Source: Escherichia phage A221
DNA length: 64,000 bases
Sequence record: ON862890.1
Reading direction: 5' to 3' (one strand)
Program-made: the position numbers and the translations under genes
Shown here: positions 1,410 to 7,242 of the stretch, piece after piece
Numbering within the stretch: the stretch's first letter is position 1
Layout: every line of letters begins with the position of its first letter
The notes under the pieces: generated by a model
The model's database searches: none
The model's input: only the letters and a program-made list of their open reading frames with translations
What the model was told of the DNA's origin: nothing

Positions 1410-2024
1410 ATGACGATGACAACGTTGAAGGCCATGGCCTTGTCCGTGACCTTTACCATTGCCAGCGGGAATGTGCACGCTTCCCAAAGTACCACCCAAT
1501 GTGATTATAATTTCTCCGAGCAACAACTTAATACGATGGCAACCGCCTATCACGTAGGCAAGACACAAGATCTTGGCTACACTCTGGCCGCCATATCTTG
1601 GCGTGAGAGCCGCGCTGGCGAAGATGTAGTGTCAATGCGATACGGCCTCAAGGCGGCCAACATGGGAGCCTTTCAGAACAAGGTGAAGACAGTTGGTGAT
1701 CGCGAAGGTTGTAAGAATCGCAAGTGCTATGCCAATGTCGCTATAAAGTTGCTGACCGACCAAGAATATGCCGCGCAAGCCGCCCTCGATGAGATGCAGT
1801 TCTGGCTGACCTATCACAATCAGAATATCCGCAAATCCCTCTCCTCTTACAATGCTGGCTTCGCCCGTAATCCTGCATCGAACGCTTATGCTGCCGACGT
1901 CGTGAAGAAAGCTAAATATCTTCAGAAATGTGTGTCCTTCGAAGGCCGGACCATCTCCGAGGTAGATCCTCAGGTGATCGCCATGAACAAGCACACAATA
2001 GAGAAACTGAAGAGGACAAGATAA
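1410..2024 (+). CDS. secreted lytic transglycosylase-like (SLT domain) protein
   Basis: N-terminal signal-peptide-like hydrophobic segment; SLT-like catalytic motif AISWRESR and downstream SYNAG; RBS AAGGAA. Confidence 0.5.
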   Translation: MTMTTLKAMALSVTFTIASGNVHASQSTTQCDYNFSEQQLNTMATAYHVGKTQDLGYTLAAISWRESRAGEDVVSMRYGLKAANMGAFQNKVKTVGDREGCKNRKCYANVAIKLLTDQEYAAQAALDEMQFWLTYHNQNIRKSLSSYNAGFARNPASNAYAADVVKKAKYLQKCVSFEGRTISEVDPQVIAMNKHTIEKLKRTR

Positions 2025-2662
2025 TGAACATCACTCCATCTCAGGCCGGATATGAACATATCTTGGTCTTCATTGCTCTACAGGGTGCGAAGGAAGGCAT
2101 CATCGTATCCGAGTACTCAGGTACGGTTCGCCTTGCTGATTATGTCGCACCGGAGGCATTTATCAAGAAGTGTATTGACGCATGGTGCCTCTATGCCCTC
2201 AGCACATACCCTGCTCCTCCTGAGGGTGAGCTGTTGTTTACTGTGCCGACTCCGGCTGTTGGCGATACAGACGCGATCTTTGCCGATATGCTGACCAAGG
2301 GGTATCTGGTGTATGACATCACCCACGATGTCTATTCCTTTACCTCACTGAACACCGTGTTTGGATTCACTATCACATCTGAAGCCAACATCCCTGACTG
2401 GGGCATCTTGGCTTGGGGTGTTGACGGCCTGGGTGCAACCTACGCATCGTCTGACGTCGGTGCGGTTCTGATTGATGAGGGTGTCACCATGGAGCAGTAC
2501 CTTGCCCAGTTCCCTCAGCACAATATCACAGGCAGCGACATCATTTTGGTCCAGCCTGGCGCTATCGCTCTCCCCCGTTTGGTGGATGGATGGAAGCCTC
2601 AGCTGAAGGACATCATCGCAGGTATTCGATCCCACATTCCGGTTGTGAATCTGACGCCGTAA
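2024..2662 (+). CDS. hypothetical protein
   Basis: ATG overlaps upstream stop (TAATG) indicating translational coupling; tool ORF began upstream in-frame. Confidence 0.5.
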   Translation: MNITPSQAGYEHILVFIALQGAKEGIIVSEYSGTVRLADYVAPEAFIKKCIDAWCLYALSTYPAPPEGELLFTVPTPAVGDTDAIFADMLTKGYLVYDITHDVYSFTSLNTVFGFTITSEANIPDWGILAWGVDGLGATYASSDVGAVLIDEGVTMEQYLAQFPQHNITGSDIILVQPGAIALPRLVDGWKPQLKDIIAGIRSHIPVVNLTP

Positions 2663-2675
2663 AAATAATTCAATA

Positions 2676-2700
2676 AAAGGGGCTTTCGCCCCTTTACTTC
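2676..2700 (+). terminator. rho-independent terminator
   Basis: Hairpin AAGGGGC-TTTC-GCCCCTT followed by T-rich TACTTCTTC. Confidence 0.6.
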
Positions 2701-2769
2701 TTCAATATCCTTCCCTATACTTCATTCCATAAGCAGTACGACACCGACTTGAATAGCAGGAACTATATC

Positions 2770-3045
2770 ATGAAAATTATCCTCGACGCATATATCCGCC
2801 ACGGTCAGAAATACCTGATGGCCAAGGTTTACGACGGCGAAGAATTGATCCACGCCCAGACCGCCCCAGCTGCCCAGCTGCGCGAAATCATGTCACGCGA
2901 CTTCCCTGGCGTTGAAATGGTAGAGCCTGCCAACCAGGCTGAAGTAGACAAAGAGTGGGAGCGCGAATGGAGTCCAGCGGCTATCGCTCGGGCTGAAAAG
3001 AATTGGTCTAACCGCGAAAACGCAAACCGCCCTTTCCGCCGTTAA
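2770..3045 (+). CDS. hypothetical protein
   Basis: ATG preceded by conserved AGGAACTATATC motif; tool start 2749 is TTG; E. coli-optimal codons. Confidence 0.5.
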   Translation: MKIILDAYIRHGQKYLMAKVYDGEELIHAQTAPAAQLREIMSRDFPGVEMVEPANQAEVDKEWEREWSPAAIARAEKNWSNRENANRPFRR

Positions 3046-3067
3046 TTTGAACCGAAGGAACTATATC

Positions 3068-3403
3068 ATGACACAACTCAAGAACTTCACCGCCGATGAC
3101 ATGTTTGCCTTCCAGGGTGCTGAGCACTTTGCTGACGGCTCCGTACCTCGCATCTACTACTTCTCCGACGAAGAAATGGAAGATTTCTTCTCCCTGATGG
3201 AAAAGGACTACGAACCAGACGACTTCGTTTATATCATCCATCACGCTGAAGGACTGACATTGGGTTGGACGGCCAACAACGAACCAGAAGAAGTAAACTT
3301 TCCTGAAGGTATCATGTCAGAGCGCGTCGAATATCTACTGGAAGCTCTGGACCCCCACACCCTCCCGCTCTGGGCGATGTCTGTAGCCCAAGTTCAAAAA
3401 TAA
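3068..3403 (+). CDS. hypothetical protein
   Basis: ATG preceded by AGGAACTATATC motif; tool start 3047 is TTG. Confidence 0.5.
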   Translation: MTQLKNFTADDMFAFQGAEHFADGSVPRIYYFSDEEMEDFFSLMEKDYEPDDFVYIIHHAEGLTLGWTANNEPEEVNFPEGIMSERVEYLLEALDPHTLPLWAMSVAQVQK

Positions 3404-3407
3404 GATA

Positions 3408-3432
3408 AGGGGGCTGACGCTCCCTTTTGGTT
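3408..3432 (+). terminator. rho-independent terminator
   Basis: GC-rich hairpin GGGGGC-TGAC-GCTCCC (one G-U wobble) followed by TTTTGGTTT. Confidence 0.5.
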
Positions 3433-3478
3433 TCGCTAATTAGAAGAAACCGCCGTTAATTCAGTCAGGAGATATAAA

Positions 3479-6199
3479 ATGTCAAAGCTAAGTTTCCTCC
3501 AGTTCATGCAGGAAAGAGATCAGTTGGACGAAGCGTTCAACTCCGCTCCGTATGAGCTGACCATGGGCAAGAAGAACGCAGGCGATGTGTTCTTCACCTT
3601 CATCGACGAAGATGAAAAGGAATACCGTATTCAGTTCTATACCCCTCAGGGGCTGGGTAAGAGTGTTCGTCAGGTTTTCATCGGCCAGAAGCGCGGCTCC
3701 GTCTATCCTGACGCCATCGCTCGCTTCAAGAACCCAATGCGCGTTATCGCTTCCATGATCGAAGCGACCAAACAATTCATGGCGACTCCTCTGGGTAAGA
3801 CCATCGATGGCTTTGCTGTCAACTTCTCTAAGAAAGCGCTGGATCGCGGTATGACCCTGATTCCTAAGATCATCCGCCAGTCCGGCCTGAAACAGAAACT
3901 GAATGTCATGGACCTGACCTACGCGCCTGTCCCCGACCGTGGTTATGTGTGGCTGGTCCGCAAGGGTAAAGATCCGGCGCAGGTATTTGACGGTCCGAAG
4001 ATGCAGGGTATCACCTGGGACGACCCAGACAAGGTCGGTGACGTTCCGGTTCAGAACAATACTCCGGATGTGGGTGTGTCATCTTCTGTTGATAATTCCA
4101 ACGGATGGAAATTAACTTCAAACGGGGATCAGCCCATGTTGTTATGGGCTGGTAAGGAGAGAGGCCGCATGAACACGGCAAATATCGCTCCCCACTACAA
4201 TGAGCCGGGCGTGTATGTTGGCGCATACATGAATGAGAAACCTGTGCGTGGGCAAAGTGCTGATTTCATTGCTCGTCAGTTGAAATTACCGCAAGTCCCT
4301 ATCAATATCCTGAATGATTTCACCATGGCGTCTACAAAATTTTGGAAAGGTTCTCAAAACAGTTCAGACAGAAATAACCCAGCCAACATTATCGGTTCTG
4401 GAACTGCTGTTATTGATGCCAAACGACTTGGTGCTCGAGAAGTAAACGTGGAACGATTCAAAAACGGTGTTCGCATGCGTTCTCAAAACGGTGACGTCGA
4501 CATCAGTATTTCCGACCCAGACTTTTCAAATGCAGCAAGTGCGACTGATGCTGCCACTGCCTCTGTTGTGGTCAAAAACGGGCGTTACGAAGGTGCCATC
4601 AATTCAAAGCGCAAGATTGCCCGCATCTCGAACGAGCAGGGTACTGAATGGGATATCATCGGTGTCAACGGGGAAACCCTTGTCTCTATCAAGTTGAACA
4701 AAGTGTCTAAATCCGCATCGGATTCGACCGAGGGTGCAACCAGTGTTGATCAATTACGTGACAGCGGTTTCATCGCTCGTGTTCTGGGTATCATTGATAC
4801 CAACGTTGGGCTGGACACTTCTATTCTTCCTGGTGAAAACATCCGTCGTGTGGGCGCTGGTCGTTACACGACAGCAGGCGGGTTGGTTATCGTTGTCAAC
4901 TTCACAAACGTCCTCGCTGGTTTCGTTCAATACTCAGTTTTCAGCGAAATTGCTGAAGAGGAGAGCGTGGCCAAAGGTAGCGCCCGTGACGTCGCCAATG
5001 CGGTAATTGCGTCCATCTTTGAGGTTGCCAAGACCCAGTACACTGGCAAATGGGAAATTAGCGCAGTGCCAACAAGCGCTCCATATCCTATCAAAGCCAT
5101 TCGCCGTTCTCGGGGCTGGGGTTATGTGGAAACCGCAAACTGGACTCTGACAGTGTCCGACGCTGTCCTGAATCGTGTGAAGCCAGGGAAAACTGCTCTA
5201 CTGGAACTCATCAAAGAACCTCCGCGTGGCAAGCACCCGCTGGAAATCATCCCAGAGAAGGGCGACAAGACCCTGATGCTGAAAGATCGTATTACCGGGG
5301 CCATCTATGGTTCTATCGACCTGAATGCCCAAGGCGCTGATCTGGTCAACTCTGGAACCCTGAAGATACCAAGCAACGCCATGGTGTTTGGTGAGACTGT
5401 CAACGGTATGTCCATCACTTGGTCTGGCGTCAATTTCCCGAAAACTGGGAAGTATGATGGTGCTGTATTGACCACGAATGTGACCTATTACTACGACAAA
5501 GGCAAAGTGGCGATCACGCCTATTGTATCCAATAAAGGTCGTACCCTGAACAATCCGAAGACATATGAACTTACTTTGAAGAAAGATATTGTTCAGGCCG
5601 TGATCGATGAAATTTCTTCTAAAATGGAAATGATATCTCGGAATATACAAACTCTGAAAAGCACGTCGTATAATCCGAAACAAGTATTTTTGGACGACAT
5701 TTCTGTTGACAACAACGGTTCAGTCCTTTGGCGCGGGTACGACATGGCGGATCGCCGCACTAATGAATTTATGTTGGGTATCCTGTCCAAAGAAACCGAG
5801 AGACTGGAGAAAGAGTCGAGTACTGCGAAGAAGACTGGTGCCGACCTTGCGGCATACGCCGACTCCATCCGCGACAACGCACCAAAAGGCCGCGACCTGG
5901 ATTGGCAGATCTATGCAAGCCGTGATGGTCAGACTCTGAACGTGGACTGGGATATCACCTTCCGCCGCAACACAACTGAAGGGGCATATCGCGAGTTCAA
6001 ATCTCAGATTGACCGCGCCAACCAGTACCTGCAGACTCTGTACCGGGATGCGAAGTCCAAGGGTTACAACCCGACTGAACCAAACCTGATGACTCTGGAT
6101 AGCGCCCAGCAGTCTGACCAGTGGGCACGAGACTACGGGGAAGGCGCATACAGCGAGTACGAGCAGTCCCTGGGTGGCAACATGCAGATTAAGATCTGA
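3479..6199 (+). CDS. large hypothetical protein (906 aa), function unknown
   Basis: Long ORF with RBS AGGAG; no polymerase or fiber motifs recognised; central third shows different codon choice from flanks. Confidence 0.6.
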   Translation: MSKLSFLQFMQERDQLDEAFNSAPYELTMGKKNAGDVFFTFIDEDEKEYRIQFYTPQGLGKSVRQVFIGQKRGSVYPDAIARFKNPMRVIASMIEATKQFMATPLGKTIDGFAVNFSKKALDRGMTLIPKIIRQSGLKQKLNVMDLTYAPVPDRGYVWLVRKGKDPAQVFDGPKMQGITWDDPDKVGDVPVQNNTPDVGVSSSVDNSNGWKLTSNGDQPMLLWAGKERGRMNTANIAPHYNEPGVYVGAYMNEKPVRGQSADFIARQLKLPQVPINILNDFTMASTKFWKGSQNSSDRNNPANIIGSGTAVIDAKRLGAREVNVERFKNGVRMRSQNGDVDISISDPDFSNAASATDAATASVVVKNGRYEGAINSKRKIARISNEQGTEWDIIGVNGETLVSIKLNKVSKSASDSTEGATSVDQLRDSGFIARVLGIIDTNVGLDTSILPGENIRRVGAGRYTTAGGLVIVVNFTNVLAGFVQYSVFSEIAEEESVAKGSARDVANAVIASIFEVAKTQYTGKWEISAVPTSAPYPIKAIRRSRGWGYVETANWTLTVSDAVLNRVKPGKTALLELIKEPPRGKHPLEIIPEKGDKTLMLKDRITGAIYGSIDLNAQGADLVNSGTLKIPSNAMVFGETVNGMSITWSGVNFPKTGKYDGAVLTTNVTYYYDKGKVAITPIVSNKGRTLNNPKTYELTLKKDIVQAVIDEISSKMEMISRNIQTLKSTSYNPKQVFLDDISVDNNGSVLWRGYDMADRRTNEFMLGILSKETERLEKESSTAKKTGADLAAYADSIRDNAPKGRDLDWQIYASRDGQTLNVDWDITFRRNTTEGAYREFKSQIDRANQYLQTLYRDAKSKGYNPTEPNLMTLDSAQQSDQWARDYGEGAYSEYEQSLGGNMQIKI

Positions 6200-6206
6200 T
6201 CATCGA

Positions 6207-6224
6207 AAGCCCCTTCGGGGGCTT
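6207..6224 (+). terminator. terminator-like hairpin overlapping late promoter
   Basis: Hairpin AAGCCCC-TTCG-GGGGCTT immediately after stop of 3479-6199. Confidence 0.45.
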
Positions 6225-6231
6225 ATAAATA
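6224..6231 (+). promoter_or_regulatory. T4-type late promoter box TATAAATA
   Basis: Exact TATAAATA about 24 nt upstream of ATG 6255. Confidence 0.5.
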
Positions 6232-6254
6232 ACTGAAATCCCGAGGAGATTAAG

Positions 6255-6560
6255 ATGAAACCGTTTATCGAATATTTTAAAGAACAAGCCGCTAAACCTC
6301 AGACCCATGCTGGTGTCCAGGGTAAGACCGTATCCATCACCAAGCAAGCTGACGGCACTCAGTGGTGCTCCGGTGCTACCGTGACCCAGATCACCCCTGA
6401 CAATCAGGCGGATGTCTACAACCTGGAGTTAACCAACGGCAACACTATCAAGGTGAAACTGACCCCAGACCAGACTCACGGTATCTCCCAAGGTCAGGAA
6501 GTCGTTGCTGTCCATGACGGTTTCGAATTCTTCTTTGGCAAGTCTGCCGACAAAGACTAA
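6255..6560 (+). CDS. hypothetical late protein (101 aa), probably virion-associated
   Basis: Follows perfect late promoter; RBS GAGGAG; strongly E. coli-optimal codons. Confidence 0.55.
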   Translation: MKPFIEYFKEQAAKPQTHAGVQGKTVSITKQADGTQWCSGATVTQITPDNQADVYNLELTNGNTIKVKLTPDQTHGISQGQEVVAVHDGFEFFFGKSADKD

Positions 6561-6600
6561 GTGAAACCATCAAGATGACTCTGGTCAAACAGTGATTACA

Positions 6601-6632
6601 ATCCCCCTAAATACAGGGGGATTTCTTTTTCT
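6601..6632 (+). terminator. rho-independent terminator
   Basis: Hairpin ATCCCCC-TAAATACA-GGGGGAT followed by TTCTTTTTCTG. Confidence 0.6.
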
Positions 6633-6645
6633 GAGGAAACAAATC

Positions 6646-6999
6646 ATGGTTAACGCGAGTATTTTCATCAACCGTGGACTGCTTGCTATAGCCCACTCTC
6701 ATGCCTTACACTTCGTTACAACGTCCTATGCCAAGCACAAGGCACTCGGGGAGTTCTACGGGGAACTGGAGGGCTTGCTGGACACGTTTACCGAAGCATA
6801 CATCGGTGCGGGTGGTCAGTATGTTCCATCATTCGAGAATATTAAATTGTACAACCCAGACCCTATCTCCTATATTAACAGTGTGGTGATAGACGTCGAT
6901 GGCATCTACAAGCAGTGTGACTCCCACCTTCAGAGCACTCTTGACGATATCAAGACACTGTGTTATCAGACGATCTACAAACTGAAGCAGCTGTCGTAA
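6646..6999 (+). CDS. hypothetical protein (possible ferritin/Dps-like helical fold)
   Basis: ATG with RBS GAGGAAAC after terminator; tool start 6592 is GTG inside the terminator hairpin; His-rich helical motif AIAHSHALHF. Confidence 0.45.
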   Translation: MVNASIFINRGLLAIAHSHALHFVTTSYAKHKALGEFYGELEGLLDTFTEAYIGAGGQYVPSFENIKLYNPDPISYINSVVIDVDGIYKQCDSHLQSTLDDIKTLCYQTIYKLKQLS

Positions 7000-7242
7000 G
7001 TCAATACGAAATAAAGGCATATAATTTGCTCATTATTCACCGAAAGGAAAGGACAATGAGCAAAATCTTTATCCCGTCACATGCGCAGCTACATGAATCT
7101 CTTGGACAACTTCGCCCACTTCGAGCACAACACGGCTGGTAAACAAATATTTTGTATAGAGGGCTTGTCGACCACTGTGTATAGCTCAAAGTCGTGATGT
7201 AGACTATACTGTGACCGAAGTGTTCCAGAGGCAGAAGATCTA

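Follow-up and report, generated by a model that had tools for sequence, protein, structure and literature searches.

A 906-residue protein of Escherichia phage A221 with an Alt-type N-terminal domain and a mosaic middle, a candidate head-packaged virion protein

In a stretch of 64,000 nucleotides from Escherichia phage A221 (ON862890.1; hereafter the window), a coding sequence at positions 3479..6199 of the plus strand specifies a protein of 906 amino acids (aa) and ends with a TGA stop codon. The open reading frame (ORF) is real, and its product has 100% identity with an Escherichia phage A221 protein annotated as hypothetical. The locus raises the question of what such a large protein does and why its center differs from its ends in codon usage. 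On balance, the protein appears to be a head-packaged, probably injected virion protein of the Alt family with swappable cargo, encoded by an Agtrevirus-like phage of the Ackermannviridae. The unusual gene is thereby largely explained as an Alt-family variant that combines an Alt-type N-terminal domain, a protease-type motif, an exchangeable middle and a conserved C-terminal domain.

Kinship with Alt of phage T4

A sequence-only reading had called the protein an ORFan. This label is wrong, since the protein matches PHROG 3867, a family of unknown function, with E = 0 and is found in 356 phage records by tblastn; the DNA of the gene matches 165 records by megablast. All matching records belong to the Ackermannviridae and comprise Agtrevirus, Kuttervirus, Taipeivirus and Limestonevirus as well as Vibrio and Aeromonas members. 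Named orthologs are Vi01_094c, Sajous1 gp214 and LIMEstone1 ORF082 together with ORF081, and the lengths within the family span 555 to 1208 aa. Homolog searches with short queries yielded just 5-6 proteins. When 1.84 billion cluster representatives were searched exhaustively with phmmer, 130 proteins (clusters at 50% identity) were obtained, which form two overlapping sets, one defined by the N-terminal domain (N-domain, 88 proteins) and one by the C-terminal domain (C-domain, 67 proteins). Searches of Pfam, NCBIfam and PDB sequences with the whole protein and with four segments gave no match, which agrees with the earlier statement that no polymerase, fiber or ATPase motif is present.

The N-domain (aa 19-190, 3533..4048, plus strand) is predicted to adopt a GNAT-like alpha/beta fold and has a GC content at third codon positions (GC3) of 0.67. 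The 88 proteins of its set, which are 300-1439 aa long, have aa ~10-185 in common, and the remainder of these proteins is mostly unrelated. In all 88 the domain begins within the first 34 residues. A relation of this domain to Alt of phage T4 was examined. Alt is a head-packaged ADP-ribosyltransferase, which is a component of the prohead core, is trimmed by a protease and is injected together with the DNA. The first comparisons, which used single sequences, did not reach significance (E 0.43 by BLASTP; a probability of 2.4% by hhalign against T4 Alt alone), and the alignments, always co-linear, were suggestive only. The link becomes convincing only because a profile of six Straboviridae Alt N-termini (T4, Melville, two genes of PspYZU05, CHI14 and Hyena) was used. 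Against this profile, the profile of the 88 N-domains reaches an hhalign probability of 94% with E 1.4e-7 in local mode and of 95% with E 6.2e-9 in global mode, over 159-184 columns that place aa 13-176 on Alt 1-177. Furthermore, a hidden Markov model (HMM) of the N-domain matches each of the six Alt proteins in a co-linear manner, with E values between 1.2e-7 and 0.08, compared with E of at least 2 for the best of ~280 decoy ORFs. The profile comparison demonstrates, at the level of sequence, that the first ~190 aa and the T4 Alt N-terminal domain are homologous.

In addition, five proteins of the N-domain set carry PF03496 (ADPrib_exo_Tox). T4 Alt directly matches the ADP-ribosyltransferase (ART) domains of these five (E 4e-17 to 6e-6), and the same domains are matched at 7.6e-34 by PHROG 802, annotated as "Alt-like RNA polymerase ADP-ribosyltransferase". 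In the other N-domain proteins, a Pfam scan revealed no cargo domain besides ART. In Aeromonas phage phiA8-29 the order of ligase, one small ORF and N-domain gene corresponds to that of 30, alt.1 and alt in T4, CHI14 and Hyena. The A221 protein shares the N-terminal domain only: at E<=1, PF03496 was found neither in the whole protein nor in its four segments, whereas T4 Alt scores 5.8e-36 in the same test. Judged by these profiles, the catalytic domain of Alt, which is of the R-S-E type, is absent from it. No similarity outside the N-domain was detected by hhalign between the full-length family and full-length Alt.

The homology extends to a putative processing site. The N-domain is preceded by a predicted helical leader of 18 aa (3479..3532, plus strand), which ends with L16-D17-E18 and would be cleaved after E18. 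This glutamate is invariant, the pattern [LIV]-x-E-[AS]-[FL] is kept in 35-37 of 37 diverse N-domains, and aa 16-19 are the sole [LIV]xE[AGS] site within the 906 aa. In the profile alignment E18 (L-D-E-A-F) coincides with Glu6 of T4 Alt (I-T-E-L-F). The predicted helix covers aa 6-20 with a pLDDT of 65-67, which is below that of the N-domain, and the predicted mature N-terminus at A19 reads AFNSAPYELTMGK / AFNSAPYELTFGK. We take the [LIV]-x-E-[AS] motif of aa 16-19 to be the recognition consensus of gp21, the prohead protease of T4. In T4, gpAlt (~40 copies) is a component of the prohead core, a capsid targeting sequence (CTS) of ~10 N-terminal aa directs proteins to this core, and gp21 trims small N-terminal peptides off gpAlt and the internal proteins (PMC9958956).

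The second conserved part is the C-domain (aa 784-906, 5828..6196, plus strand; GC3 0.69), which contains the motifs TFRRNT and AYSEYEQSxGG. The 67 proteins of its set have aa ~800-905 in common (TFRRNT ... AYSEYEQSxGG), most of them being small proteins of 110-300 aa, and in 56 of the 67 the domain ends no more than 8 residues from the C-terminus. Among the 45 proteins that possess the C-domain only, 21 start with a leader ending with [LIVM]xE[AMSG], like MKTFKEFVKE↓S and MRYSELTE↓A (the arrow marks the end of the leader), compared with 1 of 101 background ORFs. These CTS-like leaders lend independent support to the interpretation of the N-terminal site as a protease motif. Neither a second N-domain nor another copy of the C-domain was found elsewhere in the 64-kb window, and profile searches of both domains against PDB sequences gave no match.

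Several further observations concern the N-domain and the alt locus. The Pfam model of the Alt N-terminus, PF26846, is absent from the precomputed matches of Ackermannviridae proteins. A six-frame ORF of 120 aa in the alt region of T4 (L012:5066-5451) matches positions 64-102 of the HMM at E 4.6e-4; it is presumably alt.-1/alt.-2, the decayed duplicate of the start of alt, and acts as an internal positive control for the homology. Vibrio phage D533 encodes paralogs of 737 aa (L007:1424-3637) and 999 aa (L007:3992-6991) with one small ORF between them, which have an Alt-type N-domain in common (44% and 59% identity to A221) and are unrelated in their downstream parts. Pseudomonas phage PspYZU05 carries three tandem genes for Alt-like ADP-ribosyltransferases, gp158, gp157 and gp156 (L015:1-3872), and therefore the alt locus itself grows by duplication. 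The Ag3 ortholog is annotated as three ORFs (L004:1501-3880) and the LIMEstone1 ortholog as two overlapping ORFs (L006:2501-4097), which implies frameshifts inside the N-domain. They may stem from sequencing errors, true frameshifts or recoding.

Association with virions

Orthologs of the protein are found in virions. In the record of LIMEstone1, ORF082 and ORF081 are both annotated as "confirmed structural proteins", and Vi01_094c carries the annotation "phage associated protein". By mass spectrometry of LIMEstone1 virions, ORF081, with 55% coverage and 23 unique peptides, came directly after the sheath, and ORF082 was detected with 4 peptides (PMC3296691). Sajous1 gp214 is a syntenic ortholog, 74% identical in aa 1-290 and 44% in aa 422-906. 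With 196 spectra from virions purified on CsCl, it is among the five best-represented proteins there, and it was called "tail completion protein" in that study (PMC10892097). This label, which is also found on the D5lw ortholog, was considered and rejected, as neither sequence nor clear structural membership in that family was detected. The sequence-only reading had thought of packaged host-modifying enzymes and anti-restriction proteins. The idea of a packaged protein is favored by the virion orthologs and the Alt-type N-domain; an anti-restriction or enzymatic activity could not be shown.

Based on the homology to Alt, incorporation into the head core, cleavage after Glu18 and injection can be proposed for the A221 protein. 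The N-domain would direct it into the prohead core, and a prohead protease of the T4 type would cut off the 18-aa leader behind Glu18 in L-D-E↓A-F. The mature protein of ~97 kDa would then remain in the head at tens of copies and pass into the cell together with the DNA, where the middle modules and the conserved C-domain might act on a host target.

Several points weigh against this proposal. The 196 spectra of Sajous1 gp214, compared with 89 for portal or sheath, are above what might be expected for an Alt-like protein of ~40 copies. The placement inside the head, and not in the tail or neck, is inferred by homology. The predicted leader is 18 aa long, as compared with the 6 residues up to the aligned Glu6 of Alt and the ~10-aa CTS of T4. 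No late promoter lies directly upstream of the gene. Finally, part of the contrast in GC3 that is described below could stem from codon selection on the conserved termini.

The main alternative is an external structural component, i.e., a tail completion or terminator protein, a neck or collar protein or a decoration protein, in which the variable middle would be exposed and the conserved ends would serve as anchors. It draws on the abundance of the orthologs in virions and on weak fold matches; Foldseek found nothing at E<=0.001 for the full-length model against PDB. The gene is located outside the structural module, and the N-domain is of the Alt type. Such a component is regarded here as rather unlikely, and the preferred assignment remains a head-packaged member of the Alt family.

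Modules and codon usage of the middle

The part between the two conserved domains (aa 191-783) can be divided into modules. A disordered linker, which is also a recombination junction (aa 191-207, 4049..4099), is followed by module M1 (aa 208-293, 4100..4357), module M2 (aa 294-419, 4358..4735), the alpha/beta module M3, which is divergent among genera (aa 420-522, 4736..5044), and module M4, which consists of a beta-rich part and then long helices (aa 523-783, 5045..5827), all on the plus strand. The junctions were located by blastn at nt ~4050-4100, 4357/4362, ~4733, ~5045 and ~5830. M1 is present in A221, Ag3, SFP10 and Menlow, is shared with some Kuttervirus and Taipeivirus phages, and is missing in PH4 and P46FS4. 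M2 shows the reverse distribution, being shared by A221 only with PH4/PC3, P46FS4, FKP14 and its own closest relatives, and is missing in Ag3, Kuttervirus and Menlow. M4 is kept in the enterobacterial relatives except Limestonevirus, which retains only the N-domain, a diverged M1 and the C-domain. In ZQ1 (1096 aa) and CECAV_050 (1024 aa) an insertion of ~110 aa is located at the linker after the N-domain, and ZQ1 contains another ~80 aa ahead of the C-domain. Self-BLAST of the 906-aa protein revealed no internal repeats.

Within the protein, the central segment shows the lowest conservation and is missing most often, being present in 57-82% of the relatives as compared with 86-97% elsewhere in the protein. 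Among 92 non-identical relatives, aa 301-400 are found in 57-74% with 56-66% identity, and the N-domain shows 96-99% identity. To Menlow, a Klebsiella Taipeivirus, the nucleotide identity is 97-98% over M1 and 72-92% over the adjoining N-domain region. With the sharp junctions and this near-identity of M1, the proposal of a horizontally acquired or rapidly evolving center holds up. The simplest reading of these sequences is that the middle consists of modules which were exchanged by recombination between genera of the Ackermannviridae, and that the termini were inherited vertically.

The odd codon usage can be attributed to this composition of modules swapped between phage genera. As stated before for positions 4060-4620, the codons TTA, AGA, CGA, GGA, CAA and AAT are indeed enriched there, with 12.8% as compared with 3.1% in the remaining ORF (Fisher p=1.2e-6). 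An enrichment of "optimal" codons in the flanks is by itself not significant (p=0.11). A profile of GC3 was calculated in windows of 60 codons, with 67 putative genes of the 64-kb window serving as reference (mean 0.595, sd 0.089). GC3 is 0.63-0.70 over codons 1-200, drops to 0.33-0.35 at codons 261-360 (nt ~4260-4560), returns to about 0.5-0.6 and reaches 0.65-0.72 at the end of the gene. The trough, which corresponds to M2 and the end of M1, is the minimum among the 67 ORFs, and just 0.4% of all 60-codon windows are at or below 0.35. Likewise, the intragenic range of 0.43 is the largest among the 67, followed by 0.40. Calculated by domain, GC3 is 0.67 for aa 1-190, 0.69 for aa 784-906 and 0.47-0.55 for every part of aa 191-783. 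The contrast between the flanking thirds and the center, as it had been described, is therefore real, but its geometry is different, since high GC3 is confined to the two terminal domains. Since the codon statistics are not uniform and the protein is not conserved over its full length among relatives, the claim of a horizontal or variable middle stands.

The comparison of lineages fits to an exchange. In Agtrevirus-type phages the termini have a GC3 of 0.63-0.69 and the middle of 0.40-0.56, and in Kuttervirus orthologs the values for termini (0.46-0.55) and middle (0.46-0.53) are equal. The contrast is thus confined to phages with a resident genome of higher GC. The middle of the A221 gene, with a GC3 of ~0.5, matches the lower-GC lineages Kuttervirus and Taipeivirus, and its termini show the 0.63-0.69 typical of Agtrevirus.

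A second trough, which the sequence-only reading had missed, lies at codons 661-740, where GC3 is 0.38-0.45, with the 0.38 at codons 681-740, and total GC 0.36-0.39. It belongs to a low-GC stretch of M4 (~5400-5850; total GC 0.36-0.44) with a GC content at the first two codon positions (GC12) of ~0.40, situated in the well-conserved aa 640-790, which comprise a beta part rich in K, N, I and T and long helices. This stretch appears to reflect amino acid composition and not exchange.

Amino acid composition, or vertical inheritance of the gene with its termini under stronger selection for translation, might also be considered as the cause of the whole contrast. The second low-GC stretch would fit to this explanation, since it is largely due to codon positions 1 and 2 (GC12 of aa 628-783, 0.39-0.40) in a conserved region, and the terminal domains, being the most conserved parts, may be subject to stronger codon selection. 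The main trough, however, lies in GC3 (0.33) with an ordinary GC12, close relatives gain and lose whole modules, M1 is nearly identical to that of a phage of another genus next to a far less similar N-domain region, and the termini and middle of Kuttervirus are alike in GC3. The explanation is therefore improbable, and an exchange of modules is preferred.

The predicted structure is in agreement with a modular organization. The full-length AlphaFold2 model (pLDDT 71) strings together alpha/beta and beta-rich units and contains a helical stretch, and its disordered linkers (aa 181-207, ~292-304 and ~409-420) coincide with module junctions. The N-domain alone, modeled from a diverse alignment, reached a pLDDT of 88.9 and a pTM of 0.82; its predicted fold is GNAT-like, and the domain is not classed as a GNAT enzyme. 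That the N-domain is an active acyltransferase of the GNAT type, which would make the protein a packaged host- or DNA-modifying enzyme instead of a delivery module with cargo, is hardly likely. No Pfam GNAT match was found in the 906 aa, and positions 70-75 read Q/K/E-K-x-G-x-(T/V/S) where the acetyl-CoA motif A is Q/R-x-x-G-x-G/A.

Gene neighborhood and comparison with known systems

The gene is accompanied by expression signals on the plus strand. A ribosome-binding site AGGAG (3467..3471) is located 7 nt upstream of the ATG, and ahead of it a pattern scan identified a hairpin that resembles a terminator and has a T-rich tail (3407..3426). Directly downstream of the stop codon follows the hairpin AAGCCCC-TTCG-GGGGCTT (6207..6224) with a GC-rich stem of 7 bp and a TTCG loop. 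An exact T4-type late-promoter consensus, TATAAATA (6224..6231), lies 23 nt ahead of the next ATG (6255), and the record of LIMEstone1 has a putative late promoter annotated at the equivalent position. Both elements had been noticed in the sequence-only reading. The order of genes is gp46/47-type endonuclease subunits, small ORFs, the 906-aa gene, small ORFs, primase, PhoH and ribonucleotide reductase (RNR). A small ORF at 718-1047 contains a clear DUF4326 domain (E 3e-23) and in addition matches PHROG 464, a longer family, over its C-terminal third.

Products of neighboring genes were likewise found in virions, namely Sajous1 gp211, gp215, gp216 and gp217 and LIMEstone1 ORF085, ORF080 and ORF078. 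The Sajous1 cluster gp211-gp217 (L014:3832-9301; A221 counterpart 1410-7000) is located outside the structural module and yielded 31 spectra for gp211, 196 for gp214, 32 for gp215, 20 for gp216 and 10 for gp217. An N-terminal LxE leader was found in none of the checked A221 neighbors of this cluster apart from the 906-aa protein, and therefore the whole cluster cannot be called CTS-type core proteins. The next gene (6255-6560, 101 aa) matches just the first 100 of 189 positions of PHROG 4048, the family of the 189-aa virion proteins LIMEstone1 ORF080, Vi01_093c and Sajous1 gp215 (32 spectra); this virion protein is thus about half-length in A221 and RPN242. Its product also shows a weak match to a TOBE domain (E 0.0036). 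The gene at 1410-2024 codes for 204 aa with a signal-peptide-like N-terminus, MTMTTLKAMALSVTFTIASGNVHA↓SQ, and weakly matches an SLT transglycosylase (E 3.9e-4). Its relatives are annotated inconsistently as RegB, RNA endonuclease, Vs.1 or lytic transglycosylase, and its Sajous1 counterpart is gp211, which was detected in virions.

The Ackermannviridae (ViI, CBA120, Ag3 and LIMEstone with their relatives) find wide use in both phage therapy and biocontrol, and among their most abundant virion proteins is this one, which still bears the label "hypothetical" or, wrongly, "tail completion protein". The link to the N-domain of Alt provides a concrete hypothesis that can be tested, namely that the protein is taken up into the prohead core, cut after Glu18 and injected. 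The same link suggests that the Alt N-domain serves as a portable module for packaging, with cargo that goes beyond ADP-ribosyltransferases. If true, this would bear on how core proteins are selected in T4-type heads and on the engineered delivery of proteins by phage heads. The mosaicism below the level of the gene marks the locus as a hotspot of exchange between genera. A wider generalization can be put forward only tentatively, and is possible rather than probable: T4-like and Ackermannviridae phages would generally use the Alt-type N-domain as a module for capsid delivery that can carry interchangeable cargo, and the Ackermannviridae would inject an uncharacterized class of effectors in high copy number, composed of middle modules and the TFRRNT/YSEYEQ C-domain, for host takeover or counter-defence, the modules being shuffled among genera in an arms race with host immunity.

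Among known systems, the polyvalent proteins of phages and conjugative elements (Iyer et al., 2017; PMC5512222) are similar in being large and composed of several modules which are shuffled between elements, and in their predicted or known co-delivery with DNA. However, none of their defining effector domains was detected in the 906-aa protein. Polyvalent proteins possess at least two recognizable effector or enzymatic domains, and no domain was recognized in aa 191-906.

The internal proteins IPI, IPII and IPIII of T4 resemble it in their conserved N-terminal signal for targeting and processing, which is followed by a highly variable cargo, and the small C-domain proteins start with CTS-like leaders, such as the MKTFKEFVKE↓S given above. 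The internal proteins of T4 are small, about 10-20 kDa, and IPI* is an injected anti-restriction protein. In contrast to their CTS of ~10 aa only (PMC9958956), a folded domain of 170 aa is conserved here, and the protein has a size of ~100 kDa.

The closest comparison is T4 Alt itself. Both proteins are large and consist of several domains, their N-terminal domains of ~180 aa are homologous, and the [LI]-x-E near the N-terminus aligns with I4-T5-E6 of Alt. The orthologs of the 906-aa protein are associated with virions, some relatives of the Ackermannviridae family keep an Alt-type ART domain, and the position beside the DNA ligase in phiA8-29 is syntenic. In contrast to Alt, the 906-aa protein is devoid of the ADP-ribosyltransferase domain and everything after aa 190 is unrelated to Alt, and it is distinguished by a longer leader of 18 aa, an extra conserved C-domain and modular insertions and deletions between close relatives.

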